DNA from: a virus
Lineage: Duplodnaviria > Heunggongvirae > Uroviricota > Caudoviricetes
Virus record (IMG/VR): IMGVR_UViG_2703718843_000010
Direction: 5' to 3' (one strand)
DNA length: 22,143 bases
Of the stretch, positions 8,438 to 16,332 are shown piece by piece (within the stretch, counting starts at the first letter, position 1; each line of letters starts with the position of its first letter). A program made the translations under genes and the position numbers. A model generated the notes under the pieces. The model was not told the origin of the DNA and did no database searches. It saw only the letters and a program-made list of their open reading frames with translations.

Positions 8438-9550
8438 GTGTTTAACGGTTCTAATTTAAGATTGGCTCGTCTGTATCACGAGCTATCACTGGAGCAAGTA
8501 GCTGAGCGGGTCGATAAGACCCGCCAGTATATTCAGCGGCTGGAATCCGGCACGGCTGTTCCAACACCCGAGCTTGCGAATAAATTAGCTGCCGTCTTGC
8601 TGGTGATGCCTCATTTTTTTGAAGAGCAATGGCAGTCTCCTGTAAATGAAGAGATCGTTCACTTCCGCAAGCGTAGTTCTACGAGAGTCGCCACAAAAAT
8701 GGCGACTCTCGCCAAAGCTGAGCTGTATCGACGACTTATTGAAATTTTTGAAGAGTATCTGGAGTTACCGCAAGTAAGATTTCCTGAACTGAAGGTGGAT
8801 ACTCAAGAGGATATCGAAAAAGCAGCGGAGAAGTGCCGGACTGATTGGGGGCTAGGTTTTGGGCCGATCGATAACATGACTCGTCTTGCTGAAAAGCTGG
8901 GAGCGTTTGTCACTTCTTTTGATTCTGTTTCTGACGATGTTGATGCTCTTTCTGTTCCTTTGAGCCGCCCATTTATCGTAAGGAATACAGCTAAAAAGTC
9001 ACCCTGCCGTCAGCGGTTTGATATCGCTCACGAGGTTGCACATTTAATTTTACATGAGGGTGTCTCTACTGGAGACAGGGCTACTGAGTCGCAGGCTAAC
9101 CGCTTCGCGTCTGCATTGCTTTTGCCAAGAACAGCTATGGCGAAATATTTTCCACGTCCGATTGGTGGTCGAATCGACTGGCAAGGTCTTAGCCAGTTTA
9201 AATTAACGTGGAAAGTGAGTAAGGCCGCGATCATTTATAGAGCACATCAACTTGGGCTTTTAACTGACGCTCAATACAAAACCGCCTTTTTTGGTCTCAA
9301 GCGAAAGGGGGAGGCTATTGATGAGAAAGAAGATTATTTGATCCCTTGTGAGAAGCCAGAACTATTCAGTAAAGCAATGAAATGCCTGTTAAATGATTTG
9401 TCCGTGGATATTGAAACATTAGCCCAGCGTTTGAGCATAACCCCTACGATGCTCGCAGAACTTGCTAATGATGACACTTTGGTTTCTGCGTCATGTGTGA
9501 ACTCTGAGAATGTAATTTCAATGTTTGCGTATCGGATGAAAACTGCTTAA
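8438..9550 (+). CDS. XRE-family HTH fused to ImmA/IrrE-type (M78, COG2856) zinc metallopeptidase, with an extra C-terminal region
   Basis: GTG start with AAGGTG at 5-nt spacing. N-terminal HTH LRLARLYHELSLEQVAERVDKTRQYIQRLESG; HExxH motif HEVAH encoded at 9029-9043 within the ImmA-like core; about 150 further residues after the core. Confidence 0.85.
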   Translation: MFNGSNLRLARLYHELSLEQVAERVDKTRQYIQRLESGTAVPTPELANKLAAVLLVMPHFFEEQWQSPVNEEIVHFRKRSSTRVATKMATLAKAELYRRLIEIFEEYLELPQVRFPELKVDTQEDIEKAAEKCRTDWGLGFGPIDNMTRLAEKLGAFVTSFDSVSDDVDALSVPLSRPFIVRNTAKKSPCRQRFDIAHEVAHLILHEGVSTGDRATESQANRFASALLLPRTAMAKYFPRPIGGRIDWQGLSQFKLTWKVSKAAIIYRAHQLGLLTDAQYKTAFFGLKRKGEAIDEKEDYLIPCEKPELFSKAMKCLLNDLSVDIETLAQRLSITPTMLAELANDDTLVSASCVNSENVISMFAYRMKTA

Positions 9551-9564
9551 AAATCGCTGTGATG

Positions 9565-9593
9565 AAAAATCCCGCTTCGGCGGGATTTTTTTT
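9565..9593. terminator. Rho-independent terminator, potentially bidirectional
   Basis: Stem AATCCCGC / GCGGGATT with TTCG loop followed by eight T; a five-A run precedes the stem. Confidence 0.8.
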
Positions 9594-9996
9594 AGAAGAT
9601 GTCTGCACAATAGTGCACAAATTTGCACAATTTTTTTGATGCTGTTTATGCCCTTTCCGCCCTGTGGCGGCGCGGTCTGCCCCCGGATCGGCAAGTGCAC
9701 AAAAAACGAAGCAAATGTCGCGCGCAGGTGACGGGGGAACAGCCCACGCGACAGGGGTCAGGGAGGGGGTGCCATTAAATGCCATTCTTCGGCCTTTTCC
9801 GCCTTCTTAGCGCGCTTTCTCGCTTCTGGATATGTGCGGGGTCGATTGCAGTTTGCACCTGCCAGAATGGTGCTCATTCGCTCTGAGTGAGGGGGGTAAA
9901 TGCTGCGCTGAGTGGTGTTCAGGTGGTGGCCGGTCATGCGGGGATTGAAAATTACTGAAGGAGAGCCGCCGCAGGATGTGCGGCGGGTGGGTCGGG
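9594..9996. other. cos / packaging region (inferred from synteny; exact cohesive-end position not determined)
   Basis: About 400-bp non-coding interval between the cargo terminator and the 3' end of portal gene Q, where P2 has cos. Contains G-rich tracts and the TGCACAA repeats. Confidence 0.4.
9604..9630. repeat. Three TGCACAA direct repeats at exact 10-bp spacing (9604, 9614, 9624); fourth copy at 9696-9702
   Basis: Read directly from the sequence. Confidence 0.8.
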
Positions 9997-11055
9997 TCAC
10001 TCGTCTTTGAGCAGAGCGTACGGATTAAAGCGGATCACTTCCTGGCCGAGCCAGTCATTGACGCCCTTCATGGCTTCCATCACAGGCAACATTTCGTTGA
10101 TAGCGAAGACACGCGCGGCCTTCTCAACATCACCGAGCGAGCCGTTGCCTTCCGGCATTGCGCCCATTAGCTGTGGCGGGATGCGGTGAGCGTCGCGCAG
10201 ATCGTTGCGCGTGGCTGCTTTGATGTTAAGAAACTCATCCTTTGCCGATATCTGGCTGAACGGCAACAGTTGCACGCCGTCTTTGCCGCCGCCCGGCGCG
10301 TGGATCAGCACGTTTTTGAAGGAGCCTTTCCCTCTGGCCTGTGACAGCGTCTTTTGCACCACCTTGATGCTTTCCTGATCCACCTTCTCCGAACCGACAT
10401 AGAGAATACATCCGGCGTGAGAGCCGTTGTCATAGTAGAGTTTGCGGAACCTGTCGGCAGAATGGGACAGGCTGGCGGACAACAGCGCCCCCATGTACTC
10501 CGGCATACCGTAGATTTCCTGATGAATGTCAGGGTTCATGATGTGGCAGACCTCGCCCGCCCTGAACTCGTATTCATCTTTCCACTGCCGGATAAACCAG
10601 TAGGTATCAAGATCGCTTCCCCGTCGCGTGTTCAGCGCCGGAACATGCTTAAGTTTTAGCGGCTCTCCCAGGCGATTAGACCGACGCTCAAGATAGGCAT
10701 TGCCGAAGACAAACCAGTCCAGCGCAAACGCAGAGAACGCCTGCCGCGAGAGTAACGGATGAGGGATATAGCACCCGGTCAGCACATTGCGTTTGAAGTA
10801 AAGCGCCGACTGATGCAGCGGGGACTGTGCGAACGCACGGGTTAACCCCTTCCAGTCTATTGGCGTTTCGTAGTACCGGCCGTTATCGACACAGCACATG
10901 CTGTCCAGCAGATCATAGCCGTCCGTTACCGAATATGGTCCGTCAAACGTGAAGGCGCTAAGCGCCGGATCGCTTCTGAGCGCGTCAGAGATATCAGGCT
11001 GACCGGCACTGCCGCTGCTGGCAGTGTGTTTGTTTTTGTATGTGCGCTTCTTCAT
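9997..11055 (-). CDS. Q: Portal protein, P2 gpQ-like
   Basis: 352-aa ORF adjacent to and co-oriented with the large terminase; start ATG overlaps the P stop (ATGA). Confidence 0.9.
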   Translation of the reverse strand: MKKRTYKNKHTASSGSAGQPDISDALRSDPALSAFTFDGPYSVTDGYDLLDSMCCVDNGRYYETPIDWKGLTRAFAQSPLHQSALYFKRNVLTGCYIPHPLLSRQAFSAFALDWFVFGNAYLERRSNRLGEPLKLKHVPALNTRRGSDLDTYWFIRQWKDEYEFRAGEVCHIMNPDIHQEIYGMPEYMGALLSASLSHSADRFRKLYYDNGSHAGCILYVGSEKVDQESIKVVQKTLSQARGKGSFKNVLIHAPGGGKDGVQLLPFSQISAKDEFLNIKAATRNDLRDAHRIPPQLMGAMPEGNGSLGDVEKAARVFAINEMLPVMEAMKGVNDWLGQEVIRFNPYALLKDE

Positions 11056-12785: not shown

Positions 12786-12944
12786 CTGCCCTCCACCGTT
12801 TATGGAGTGAAGATTACCCCGCGCGCGATCCCGCTATCGCCCCCTTTATGGTCTGGCCTTCCTCCGACAACAAAACCTCGTTGAGACAGCAAGTTACGCT
12901 CTGCCATCATGGCCGTACAGAAACCACTCAACAGGATTATCGAC

Positions 12945-13781
12945 ATGGCCAGCGCAGCTAAACCAGCCCGTAAGAAATTCCGCGTTGCTGTCTCCGGTGC
13001 CACCGTTGACGGGCGTGAAATTCGCCCTGAGCACCTTCGTGATGCAGCAGCAAACTACAGCCCGGACGTGTACGGCGCACGCGTCAACGTGGAGCACTAT
13101 ATTTCGCCTTTCCCCGGCAGTGATTTCGGTGCGATGGGGGATGTTACGGCGCTGAGTGCTGAAGATATCAGCGAAGGCCCGCTCGCCGGACGCACCGCGC
13201 TTTACGCTGAGATTGAACCTTCTGAACGCATGAAGAAGCTGACGGATGAAGGTAAGAAAATTTACTCCAGCATTGAGCTGCACCCGCAGTTTGCGCTTAA
13301 CGGCAAGGCGTATGTCATGGGGCTGGCAATGACTGATACCCCGGCGAGCCTCGGCACCGAGCGCCTGAAGTTTGCCGCGCAGCAGCGTCAGCAGGTTATG
13401 TCCTTCAACAATCAACAGGGTGAAGCCCCGCTGTTCACCGATGCCATAGAGGCTGAAATCATCGAACTGGCTGAGCAGCGCAGCGATGAGGGTAAACAGT
13501 GGTTCGCGCGCGTCATGGGGATTATCGGGAAAGGCCGTAAATCTGACGGTGAGCAATTCAGCCAGGTGCGTGACGCCGTGGAGAACGTCGCCCAGTCCCA
13601 TGCCGAACTGCTGGACAGCTTCAACGACCTGAGCCGCGCCCGGGAGCAGGACAGCCAGGCCATTCAAAAGCTGACCTCCGACCTTGCCGCGCTGACCAGC
13701 AAGCTGGGAAGCGCAGACGGCAATTTCAGCCAGCGGGCACCCGCGAGCGGTGGCGCTAACGCGCAACTGGCTGATTACTGA
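12945..13781 (+). CDS. O: Capsid scaffolding protein, P2 gpO-like
   Basis: KFRVAVSGATVDGREI...YGARVNVEHY...YSSIELHPQF...GLAMTDTPASLGTE matches remembered P2 O. ATG at 12945 is preferred over 12909 because an AGGA precedes it. Confidence 0.9.
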   Translation: MASAAKPARKKFRVAVSGATVDGREIRPEHLRDAAANYSPDVYGARVNVEHYISPFPGSDFGAMGDVTALSAEDISEGPLAGRTALYAEIEPSERMKKLTDEGKKIYSSIELHPQFALNGKAYVMGLAMTDTPASLGTERLKFAAQQRQQVMSFNNQQGEAPLFTDAIEAEIIELAEQRSDEGKQWFARVMGIIGKGRKSDGEQFSQVRDAVENVAQSHAELLDSFNDLSRAREQDSQAIQKLTSDLAALTSKLGSADGNFSQRAPASGGANAQLADY

Positions 13782-13804: not shown

Positions 13805-14854
13805 ATGGATAACAATACCCGCCAGTTATTTGATCAGTACATCGCCCGGCAGGCACAGCTCAACGGCGTATCAACCGCCGCCGTTGCTGCAAAATTTGCC
13901 GTAGATCCGACGCGTCAGCAGCGCCTTGAGCAGGCCGCACAGCAGGATGATTCTTTCCTGAGCAAAATTAACGTGTTTGGCGTCAACCAGCAGATCGGTC
14001 AGAAAGTCCTGATCGGCAGCAAAGGCCCGATGGCTGGAGTAAACAACAGTGTAACCAGTCGTCGCAACCCTGGCTCTAATCATTCCATGGAGCCGTTCGA
14101 TTACATGTGCCGCAAGGTCAACTATGACTACGGCATCAGCTATGAACAGCTTGATGCGTGGGCGCACATGCCGGAGTTCCAGCCGCTGATCAGTAAGGCG
14201 ATGGCCCGCCAGATGTCGCTTGACCGCATCATGATTGGCTTTAACGGCGTGAAGTACAGCGACCCGTCTGACCGTGCCGCTAACCCGCTGTTGCAGGACT
14301 GTGGCATTGGCTGGCTGGAAAAAATCCGCCAGGAAGCGCCGCACCGCGTCATTTCCAATGTGACGATTACCTCGCGCGATGAAGATAACAAGATTGTCGC
14401 AAAAGGCACCTACGGCAACATTGGCGCTGCGGTGTACGACGCCAAAAACAGCCTGATGGATGAATGGCACAAGCGTAACCCGGATAATGTGGTGATTCTG
14501 GCTGGCGACCTGCTGACGAGCAGCAATTTCTCGGCCATCAACGCGTTAAGCCAGACCAACCCGAATACCGAAATGCTGGCCGGTCAGTTGATTGTCGCGC
14601 AGGAGCGCGTAGGCAACATGCCGACCTTTATCGCGCCTTACTTCCCGGTGAATGGCGTGCTGATCACACCATTCAAAAACCTGTCGGTGTACTACCAGCG
14701 CGGCGGTCTGCGCCGGACGATCAAAGAAGAGCCGGAATACAACCGTGTCGCAACATATCAGTCTTCAAACGATGACTTCGTCATTGAAGACTACGGCAAT
14801 GTTGCGTTCATTGACGGCATTCAGTTCGCCCAGGCCGAAGCGGCAGGCGAGTGA
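13805..14854 (+). CDS. N: Major capsid protein, P2 gpN-like
   Basis: 349 aa with GFNGVKYSDPSDRAANPLLQDCGIGWLEKIRQEAP and LSVYYQRGG, matching remembered P2 N. Confidence 0.95.
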   Translation: MDNNTRQLFDQYIARQAQLNGVSTAAVAAKFAVDPTRQQRLEQAAQQDDSFLSKINVFGVNQQIGQKVLIGSKGPMAGVNNSVTSRRNPGSNHSMEPFDYMCRKVNYDYGISYEQLDAWAHMPEFQPLISKAMARQMSLDRIMIGFNGVKYSDPSDRAANPLLQDCGIGWLEKIRQEAPHRVISNVTITSRDEDNKIVAKGTYGNIGAAVYDAKNSLMDEWHKRNPDNVVILAGDLLTSSNFSAINALSQTNPNTEMLAGQLIVAQERVGNMPTFIAPYFPVNGVLITPFKNLSVYYQRGGLRRTIKEEPEYNRVATYQSSNDDFVIEDYGNVAFIDGIQFAQAEAAGE

Positions 14855-14899
14855 CAGAAGCGGTGGGGCATTGCCCCGCCATGACGGGGAGAAGTGACG

Positions 14900-15709
14900 A
14901 TGTTAACACCGGCACAACGACATTTTCAGAAGGTCATGGCAGAACGCCGGGGCCAGGCGGATGAAGAATCCGATATCCAGCGTACCGCGCATGAGCAAAT
15001 TCTGCATCGCCTGCGTATGGACTTGTCCCGCCTCAGCGGCGTGCAGTCCGAAGAAACCAAAGCCGAAATGAAGAAATCCATGCTGCCTGAATACGAGGGA
15101 TGGATTGAAGGCACGCTCGACGGCGACAGCGGGCGGCAGGATGAAGTCATTACCAGGCTGATGGTCTGGGCGATTGACTGTCGTGACTATGCGCTTGCGT
15201 TGAGGCTGGGGCGCTACGTGGTACGCCACGGGCTGACACTGCCGGATAACTTCAACCGCACGGCAGCGACCTTCCTGACTGAAGAAATGAGCAAGCCACT
15301 GTTGACGCTCGCGGCTGCTGATGCCGACGCTGATTTGTCGTCCGGTATCGCAGTGCTTGACGAAGTCGCGGGAATTGTCGCCGACAGTGATATGCCGGAT
15401 GTGGTGCGCGCCAAGTTGTGCAAAGCCCGCGCGCTTGCCCGCCGTGGCGCGACTGATATCACGACCAAAGCTGAGGCGCTGGCGCTGTTCCGTGAGGCGC
15501 TGACGCGAAACCCTAATGCCGGGGTAAAAAAAGAGATCGCAACGCTTGCCCGTGAAGTTAAGAAGCTGTCTGCGGATAGCGGCACGGGTGAAGGTGACTC
15601 GGCCAGCACCGACAAAACTGACGGTACTGCTGATCCCGCCCCTGAAAAAAGCGCCAGCGCGGCAGGCAAAGCTACAAAGCGCAAGCCTGCCAGCCAGAAA
15701 AAGAATTAA
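14900..15709 (+). CDS. M: Terminase small subunit, P2 gpM-like
   Basis: MLTPAQRHFQKV...DMPDVVRAKLCKA...AGVKKEIATLAREVKKL resembles P2 M. ATG at 14900 with GGGGAGAAG upstream; an in-frame GTG at 14894 is also possible. Confidence 0.9.
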   Translation: MLTPAQRHFQKVMAERRGQADEESDIQRTAHEQILHRLRMDLSRLSGVQSEETKAEMKKSMLPEYEGWIEGTLDGDSGRQDEVITRLMVWAIDCRDYALALRLGRYVVRHGLTLPDNFNRTAATFLTEEMSKPLLTLAAADADADLSSGIAVLDEVAGIVADSDMPDVVRAKLCKARALARRGATDITTKAEALALFREALTRNPNAGVKKEIATLAREVKKLSADSGTGEGDSASTDKTDGTADPAPEKSASAAGKATKRKPASQKKN

Positions 15710-15807
15710 CGACTTCGGCCCCGTCCGACAGGCGGCGCGGGTGGATATCTGCCCGTTTACGGTCTTTTAACCACCCGCCCACCGCCTGATTTATGGGAGA
15801 TAAGTGC

Positions 15808-16332
15808 ATGAGCAGCCTTGTGGCTAATAAGCGCGTGTTGCCTGCCGGCAGCGATACCCCCGATGTTGATGATGGTGATACCACCGTCAGTGCCGGGGAC
15901 TTCTGGCCGGTGATTAAACTGGCCGATCTTCGTCTGGCCGCGCGCATCACTGGCGGCATCACCACGTCCAGGCTGATGCACGTCACCACGGAAGCGGTAG
16001 CCCATGTCACTGCGCAGTTGCTGGACTGGCGTGCCGGTCAGGTCAAGGCAGGTTTTCAGACGCTGGAAGATGTGCCTTCAACCCTGCCATCAGGTGAGAT
16101 GGAAAAGCTGGTTATCAACGGTGAAAACGTGAAGGTGTACCGCTTCCGCCGCGCAGTCTATTCGATTGCCAGGGCGCTGGTACTTGAAGGCTATCGCGAC
16201 GTTGATACCACGGCGAAAGGCGATAAAGACGCCGCCGCGCTTGACCTGCAACGGGATGATCTCTGGCGGGATGCCCGCTGGAGTATCGCTGACATTCGCG
16301 ACACCCCGCGCCTCTATGCGGAGCTTTGCTGA
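15808..16332 (+). CDS. L: Capsid completion protein, P2 gpL-like
   Basis: GFQTLEDVP...KVYRFRRAVYSIARALVLEGYRDVDTTAKGDKDAAALD...DDLWRDARWSIADIR matches remembered P2 L. ATG at 15808 with GGGAGA upstream. Confidence 0.9.
   Translation: MSSLVANKRVLPAGSDTPDVDDGDTTVSAGDFWPVIKLADLRLAARITGGITTSRLMHVTTEAVAHVTAQLLDWRAGQVKAGFQTLEDVPSTLPSGEMEKLVINGENVKVYRFRRAVYSIARALVLEGYRDVDTTAKGDKDAAALDLQRDDLWRDARWSIADIRDTPRLYAELC

Follow-up and report, generated by a model that had tools for sequence, protein, structure and literature searches.

A conserved GC-rich hairpin between the capsid and terminase genes in one branch of the P2-like phages

Introduction

Stable stem-loops that lack a U-tract and lie between the cistrons of an operon can stabilize the upstream cistron, as do the REP element between malE and malF of Escherichia coli and the puf hairpins of Rhodobacter capsulatus, at junctions where the upstream product is needed in large excess. 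A conserved RNA structure located downstream of the major head gene of Mu-like phages, the Mu-gpT-DE motif, was reportedly described by Weinberg et al. in 2017. In phage T7, the only terminator for the T7 RNA polymerase, Tphi, directly follows capsid gene 10, and sequencing reads fall after Tphi (10.1101/647024). Phage operons have also been found to be tuned by weak terminators (PMC9163698).

Here, a GC-rich hairpin is analyzed that separates the major capsid gene N from the small terminase subunit gene M in a P2-like prophage; the stretch of tailed-phage DNA that contains it, 22,143 nucleotides in length, is referred to below as the window. As in the malE-malF and puf operons, the element is a stable stem-loop without a U-tract between two cistrons, with the upstream product needed in large excess. 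REP elements, however, are multi-copy repeats of the host, whereas the N-M hairpin is a single-copy, phage-lineage-specific structure of unrelated sequence, to which a stabilizing role would be assigned by analogy. It shares with Tphi the position right behind the major capsid gene, but Tphi is a true terminator of the T7 RNA polymerase with a U-run, whereas in this P2 clade the U-tract is not conserved and the host RNA polymerase transcribes the hairpin. The Mu-gpT-DE motif likewise lies just 3' of a phage major capsid gene, but it belongs to another phage family and has another architecture, and the N-M region gave no match in Rfam. Within the P2 family itself, P2, 186, phiCTX, RSA1, and the Fels-2-like phages have the same gene order and operon at this junction, but their N-M gap is only -4 to +5 nt, and M has its Shine-Dalgarno sequence inside N. 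A literature search yielded no description of either the N-M hairpin or the structured element of the following M-L spacer (see below) in P2-like phages, although the original paper on the P2 head-gene sequence (Linderoth et al. 1991) may mention one.

Results

The N-M hairpin in the window

Pfam matches and gene order identify the region around the hairpin as the head genes of a P2-like prophage (Peduoviridae). The open reading frames (ORFs) at 12909-13781, 13805-14854, 14900-15709, and 15793-16332 match Phage_GPO, Phage_cap_P2, Phage_term_smal, and Phage_GPL, respectively, and correspond, in this order, to genes O, N, M, and L of P2. Among deposited phages, the nearest is Enterobacter phage phiT5282H (genus Novemvirus; 95 to 98% nucleotide identity). 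Gene N (13805..14854, plus strand; PF05125, 5.9e-125) encodes a major capsid protein of 349 amino acids that is 98% identical to that of phiT5282H, and ends with a TGA stop codon at 14852-14854. Gene M (14900..15709, plus strand; PF05944, 6e-40) encodes a small terminase subunit of 269 amino acids; its start was assigned to the ATG at 14900 rather than to the GTG at 14894 of the ORF list, all homologs beginning with MLTPAQ at the former position. The resulting N-M spacer is 45 nt long. N and M are both plus-strand late genes of a single operon, in agreement with the O operon transcript annotated in the P2 record.

The hairpin occupies positions 14862..14880 and reads GGTGGGGCATTGCCCCGCC on the plus strand. 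The preliminary description had paired GGTGGGG with CCCCGCC, and this pairing is indeed found in the sequence. An eighth pair, C14869-G14873, lies beyond those arms and shortens the loop to three nucleotides, such that the 5' arm GGTGGGGC (14862-14869) and the 3' arm GCCCCGCC (14873-14880) enclose an ATT loop (14870-14872). One of the eight pairs, T14864-G14878, is a G-U wobble, and the remaining seven are G-C. The stem begins 7 nt past the N stop codon, after the linker CAGAAGC (14855..14861), and its 3' end lies 19 nt upstream of the M ATG and 5 nt ahead of the M Shine-Dalgarno sequence GGGGAG (14886-14891, 8 nt 5' of the ATG), so that its placement between the N stop and the M ribosome-binding site, as well as the absence of a T-tract, are as originally reported: the tail that follows the stem, ATGACGGG, contains a single T in 8 nt.

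The isolated hairpin has a predicted folding energy of -16.6 kcal/mol (z = -3.1; 2 of 200 shuffles were equally good), and none of 1,000 dinucleotide shuffles of the 45-nt spacer produced an equally good hairpin. When folded in an 81-nt context, the total energy was no better than that of shuffled sequences (z = -0.02). Across the entire 22-kb window, there are about 6 distinct perfect hairpins of -12 kcal/mol or lower per strand, approximately the number found in random sequence of the same composition; for hairpins of -16 kcal/mol or lower, the random expectation is 0.6. Considered on its own, then, the window sequence gives the hairpin a modest, only suggestive significance, and the hairpin is judged to be real because it is conserved, with covariation, in the relatives.

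Conservation and covariation across the P2 family

Loci encoding relatives of N were gathered from IMG/VR, GTDB genomes, and GenBank phages (n = 358), and both the N stop and the M start could be located in 349 of these, which constitute the junction set. A spacer of 42 to 66 nt was found in 281 junctions, and 276 of these, which represent 82 of the 86 unique sequences, have a perfect GC-rich hairpin; the other five contain one with a single mismatch or bulge. The energies of these hairpins range from -11.6 to -23.0 kcal/mol (median, -15.6), the stems are 7 to 11 bp long, and the loops span 3 to 11 nt and are often UUCG-type tetraloops. The linker from the N stop measures 4 to 15 nt (29 nt in one case; median, 9), and the 3' end of the hairpin lies 11 to 19 nt from the M ATG, with a G-rich Shine-Dalgarno sequence at the same position in every relative.

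The stems do not share a single sequence. At least 16 different inner-stem sequences are present among the relatives, every one of them still paired; examples include GGCGGGGC, GGCGGGGG, TGGTGGGGG/CCCCCACCA, GGGCGGGC, GGCGGGCA, and GGCCAGC, as well as GCAGGCCAGC, CCGCCGGG, GTGCCGGA, CCGGTGCCGGA, GCAGGCCG, and GCCGGGGGA. The loop and linker sequences drift, and the capsid proteins of the hairpin-bearing phages diverge to about 50% identity. When 19 lineage representatives were each compared with their own shuffles, 18 showed equally good hairpins in no more than 19 of 1,000 shuffles and the nineteenth in 54; a combined p-value from this test treats the lineages as independent and thus overstates the significance. 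In structure-anchored, ungapped alignments, changes on both sides of the stem were found at 6 of the 7 positions. Covariation scores were 0.64 and 0.61, compared with 0.17 and 0.11 for shuffles, and controls in which the partner arm was slid paired at 36 to 56%; these alignments include perfect hairpins only and are anchored on the loop, so that 100% pairing is produced by construction and the information lies in how diverse the pair types are. When 43 spacers were aligned with MAFFT without such anchoring, RNAalifold predicted no structure because the arms of the unrelated stems fall out of register. Together, the comparisons strongly support selection for pairing, and a function for the conserved hairpin is probable, most likely of an ordinary kind.

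In a neighbor-joining tree of N, all 86 hairpin-bearing junction types fall inside a single clade of 95, which comprises Novemvirus, the Klebsiella 3LV2017-like phages, Reipivirus, Senquatrovirus, Xuanwuvirus, and uncultured relatives, whereas all 23 outgroup types lack the hairpin. The N-M gap is 3 nt in P2, 4 in 186, 5 in phiCTX, and 3 in the Fels-2-like phage RE2010, and the two genes overlap by 4 nt in RSA1; gaps of 3, 2, 13, and 18 nt were found in Vimunumvirus, a Shewanella phage, HP1, and a Mannheimia phage, respectively. At none of these nine junctions is the hairpin present, nor is there room for one. The long spacer with its hairpin is thus a derived trait that arose within a single branch of the P2 family and has at times been lost there. 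Nine types inside the clade lack the hairpin, among them locus L026, and the hairpin is therefore dispensable at least sometimes. It carries no annotation in the deposited relatives inspected.

Several junctions show additional features. In L026 (IMGVR_UViG_2541047105_000007; junction at 2412-2436), a clean 21-nt deletion has removed the hairpin, leaving a natural knockout; the deletion runs between two CGGGG repeats, one in the 5' arm and the other in the Shine-Dalgarno sequence, and both N (97%) and M (99%) are intact. Comparison of the flanking coding sequences with those of the window shows 92% identity over the last 120 amino acids of N and 71% over the first 120 of M in the L035 group, and 93% at the N end and 98% at the M start in L041. 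Such sharp changes in identity at the junction, for example, in L035, L041, and L034, suggest either unequal rates of evolution of the two genes or recombination breakpoints in the spacer. Finally, an RSA1-like contig, L190 (IMGVR_UViG_3300007042_000056), contains a 495-nt insertion between N and M that includes two similar stretches, each with a terminal ATCCGCTGGTGGTA(A/G) motif; the insertion resembles a moron that has entered at this junction.

Comparison with known classes of elements

Intrinsic termination of the E. coli type requires a U-tract in addition to a GC-rich stem-loop. The hairpin has such a stem-loop (about 5 to 12 bp with a short loop), but the U-tract is missing in the window and is not conserved in the relatives: the 8 nt past the stem contain no or one T in 43 of 82 unique junctions, three or four in 28, and never more than four, and in Reipivirus, the stem runs directly into CAGGAG. 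A scan with the terminator consensus did not call the hairpin, and the total number of promoter and terminator consensus sites was no greater than in shuffled sequences. A canonical intrinsic terminator was accordingly rejected.

A search of positions 14700-15050 on both strands with Rfam cmscan, up to E = 10, matched no family; the best E value was 4.8, and the only matches, CRISPR-DR10 (13.2 bits; threshold, 39) and sR41 (10.2 bits; threshold, 54), were unrelated and below threshold. A REP or BIME repeat was rejected as well, the hairpin being present in a single copy in the 22-kb window and its stems differing by lineage with no consensus. An RNase III site comprises duplex RNA of about two helical turns (some 20 bp), and the stem of 8 bp (7 to 11 bp in the relatives) is too short for this. 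Read-through of the N stop codon could in the window, where the TGA is followed by a C, add a 9-codon extension, QKRWGIAPP; most lineages, however, use TAA, the downstream sequences are unrelated, and the extension is not conserved. A short ORF starting from the ATG at 14881 has no Shine-Dalgarno sequence, and this ATG is lost in L024 and L032 (ATAAC). What the element does have are the properties of an intercistronic hairpin: it is stable, conserved, and located in the untranslated 45-nt spacer of the polycistronic O operon.

The stability of the hairpin shows no strand bias of the kind that G-U pairs would produce: 30 unique spacers fold better on the plus strand and 34 on the minus strand (p = 0.64). 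With stability equal on both strands, the strand of action cannot be assigned from the sequence; a role in the plus-strand mRNA is assigned because both neighbors are plus-strand late genes of one operon.

The T14864 allele of the window

The window itself carries an unusual variant of the hairpin. The T at position 14864, which replaces the usual C-G pair with U-G, is unique among the 349 junctions, and a search of IMG/VR for exact copies of this allele found none. A C at the equivalent position, and thus a C-G pair, is present in nearly all close relatives, whereas in L034, the T is accompanied by a compensating A on the other arm, giving U-A (TGGTGGGGG/CCCCCACCA); the window therefore represents the G-U intermediate of a compensatory path. 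The T is predicted to weaken the hairpin by about 2 kcal/mol and to favor a competing minimum-energy fold (14861..14911, plus strand) that is specific to this allele. In the latter, 14874-14878 would pair with the G run of the Shine-Dalgarno sequence (14885-14889), 14867-14873 with 14898-14904, which includes the AUG, and 14861-14865 with 14907-14911. In a 69-nt context, the mean pair probability is 0.69 for this alternative fold versus 0.29 for the hairpin, with the energy gap of about 1 kcal/mol being within the error of the energy model; depending on the context, the pair probability of the hairpin is 0.23 to 0.62 with the T and 1.00 with the C allele. During transcription, the local hairpin would form first. 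The predicted shift is best regarded as a curiosity rather than a finding, and T14864 could reflect a sequencing error, a neutral compensatory intermediate, or, if the prophage is silent, a mildly deleterious allele.

Other structured elements in the window

The next spacer of the same operon, between M and L, contains a covarying structure that is found throughout the family (15706-15790, plus strand). The 83-nt spacer (15710-15792) folds with -38.1 kcal/mol (z = -4.9). Its 5' part is a mini-hairpin, GYGC-CCCCG-GCRC, which is followed by a long interrupted stem composed of an outer stem of 6 to 7 bp (CAGGCGG/CCGCCTG), an invariant unpaired C, and a variable inner stem of 5 to 14 bp with its apex; on the 3' side, an invariant (C/T)CA bulge, CCA in the window, precedes the 3' half of the outer stem. 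This architecture is common to P2, 186, phiCTX, RSA1, the Mannheimia phage, a Novosphingobium prophage, and all subclades checked. When 27 diverse sequences were aligned with MAFFT, 93% of the cells were paired and 11 of the 13 pairs had changed on both sides; the covariation score was 0.62 compared with 0.15 for shuffles. A covariance model finds one copy in the window and is strand-specific (66 bits on the plus strand versus 6 bits on the minus strand). An Rfam scan of the M-L region matched no family, and the P2 and 186 records contain no annotation of the element. The run of T that follows it is variable, and the element is not clearly a terminator; its invariant internal loop suggests that a protein or RNA polymerase may bind there. 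The M-L element is both more conserved and more elaborate than the N-M hairpin.

Three further hairpins in the window deserve mention. At 9564-9591, just 3' of the plus-strand ORF 8438-9550, there is a bidirectional terminator-like hairpin, GAAAAATCCCGCTTCGGCGGGATTTTTT, with runs of A and T on both sides. GGCGGG/CCCGCC stems are typical of terminators. This canonical Rho-independent structure has a GC-rich stem and a short loop, as does the N-M hairpin, but it has flanking A5 and T8 runs where the N-M hairpin has the tail ATGACGGG. The hairpin at 9564-9591 may delimit the phage head region near cos or coincide with the prophage boundary. At 9966-9986, 10 nt downstream of the stop of portal gene Q (minus strand, 9997-11055), lies a perfect 8-bp GC hairpin, CCGCCGCAGGATGTGCGGCGG, a second example of one that trails a head gene and has no T-tract; possibly, it is the 3' end of the P-Q operon, or it is cos related. 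The strongest perfect palindrome in the window, with 12 bp and -22 kcal/mol (CGAGAGTCGCC-ACAAAA-ATGGCGACTCTCG; 8682-8711), is located inside ORF 8438-9550.

Discussion

The function that best fits these observations is that of an intercistronic hairpin of the plus-strand mRNA that would block 3' exonucleases, or weakly attenuate transcription, and thereby raise the level of the O-N message over that of M; we hold this reading with a probability of roughly 0.45. In the sequence of events we infer, the polycistronic transcript would be cut or ended downstream of the hairpin, and 3'-to-5' exonucleases would degrade the M segment and stall at the stable stem of 7 to 11 G-C-rich pairs, such that the message for the scaffold and the capsid (O-N) would outlive that for the terminase (M). 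Transcription would drop off little at the hairpin, if at all, and the outcome would be a higher ratio of N to M. Such a ratio would fit the virion because hundreds of capsid subunits, but only catalytic amounts of the terminase, are needed. A barrier to exonucleases is favored over a terminator because the U-tract is not conserved. The malE-malF and puf hairpins follow the same logic, and expression tuned directly behind a capsid gene has a precedent in Tphi of T7 (10.1101/647024). The preliminary description had proposed an attenuator or RNA-stability element; that the hairpin has a function is strongly supported by its conservation and compensatory changes, the absence of a U-tract argues against the attenuator, and the favored effect on stability would be the part of that proposal to keep. 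Several observations run against a stabilizing role: P2, 186, phiCTX, RSA1, and the Fels-2-like phages, that is, most of the family, manage the N:M ratio without the hairpin; the two strands are equally stable; and the hairpin has been lost within the clade.

The main rival of stabilization is an effect on translation, in which the hairpin would isolate M initiation from the heavy ribosome traffic on N, either by blocking the sliding and reinitiation of ribosomes after termination or by shielding the M Shine-Dalgarno sequence from upstream pairing, which would leave independent, low-level initiation as the sole source of M. Without exception, the hairpin starts after the N stop (typically by 4 to 15 nt) and ends ahead of the M Shine-Dalgarno sequence, 11 to 19 nt before the ATG; the gap of -4 to +5 nt in the hairpin-less members is the classic arrangement for translational coupling, so that the gain of the spacer and hairpin coincides with the abandonment of that arrangement. 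In a compact phage genome, however, any intercistronic hairpin would have the same geometry, and the predicted accessibility of the Shine-Dalgarno sequence varies among lineages (0.17 to 0.83 unpaired) with no consistent insulating pattern. We consider this insulation unlikely, even though the sequence data cannot separate it from stabilization. Partial intrinsic termination, as first proposed, whereby some polymerases would stop and fewer transcripts would reach M and the genes downstream, is distinctly unlikely. The very GC-rich stem-loop is of the terminator type, weakly T-rich tails follow it in some relatives (e.g., GTTATTCGG, CCCTTTGG, and GCTTTGG), phage weak terminators balance expression (PMC9163698), and Tphi follows the T7 capsid gene. 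Against this stand the tail of the window, ATGACGGG, with its one T, the 43 of 82 unique junctions with no or one T, and the negative scan. Furthermore, given the footprint of a ribosome, one positioned on the N stop would cover the first pairs of the stem, and a trailing ribosome that stopped 7 nt upstream would be expected to hinder the formation of the hairpin.

Translation of N could also be sensed directly: a ribosome terminating on N would melt the 5' arm, and the freed CCCCG would pair with the CGGGG of the M Shine-Dalgarno sequence, repressing M translation in proportion to N translation. The pairing 14874-14878/14885-14889 is part of the minimum-energy fold of the window, and when the RNA was masked to a point 12 nt beyond the N stop codon, the fraction of the Shine-Dalgarno sequence predicted to be unpaired fell both in the window (0.54 to 0.43) and in L034 (0.62 to 0.17). 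In most other lineages, however, the Shine-Dalgarno sequence becomes equally or more accessible (e.g., from 0.17 to 0.74 in Reipivirus and from 0.68 to 0.96 in L357), composition alone would make a C-rich arm complementary to a G-rich Shine-Dalgarno sequence, and the energy differences do not exceed the model error. Sequestration of the Shine-Dalgarno sequence through a ribosome on the stop codon, which is predicted only in the Novemvirus lineage and fails or reverses elsewhere, was therefore rejected as a general property, and a ribosome-sensing device of this kind seems extremely improbable. As one half of a translation-coupled switch, the hairpin would release its C-rich arm to occlude the M Shine-Dalgarno sequence (and, in the allele of the window, the AUG as well), and M output could be inversely tied to N translation; in a broader version, the hairpin and the family-wide M-L structure would form a two-element system that could set the stoichiometry of the P2 late operon through RNA processing or antitermination. 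This reading fares hardly better and is very improbable. Finally, the hairpin might have no present function in RNA and be either a relic, such as an eroded terminator of an ancestral O-N module or a recombination joint, or an element acting in DNA. Consistent with this, both strands are equally stable, the hairpin has been lost repeatedly inside the clade, and the N-M junction resembles a mosaic boundary (92%/71% in one group versus 93%/98% in L041). A neutral relic, however, would not stay paired through at least 16 different stems and capsids as divergent as about 50% identity, and we know of no DNA-level process that needs an 8-bp palindrome at the N-M junction; this possibility appears quite improbable.

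The hairpin is a conserved, unannotated feature of many prophages of Klebsiella, Enterobacter, Salmonella, and E. coli and is useful for annotation and for the engineering of P2-like vectors. It opens no long-standing question, and the family-wide M-L structure may matter more. If the hairpin does set the capsid-to-terminase ratio, one branch of the P2 family would have swapped the direct coupling of N and M for a solution based on RNA structure, and the family would offer a natural comparison of two ways to fix the stoichiometry of structural versus catalytic proteins in one operon.
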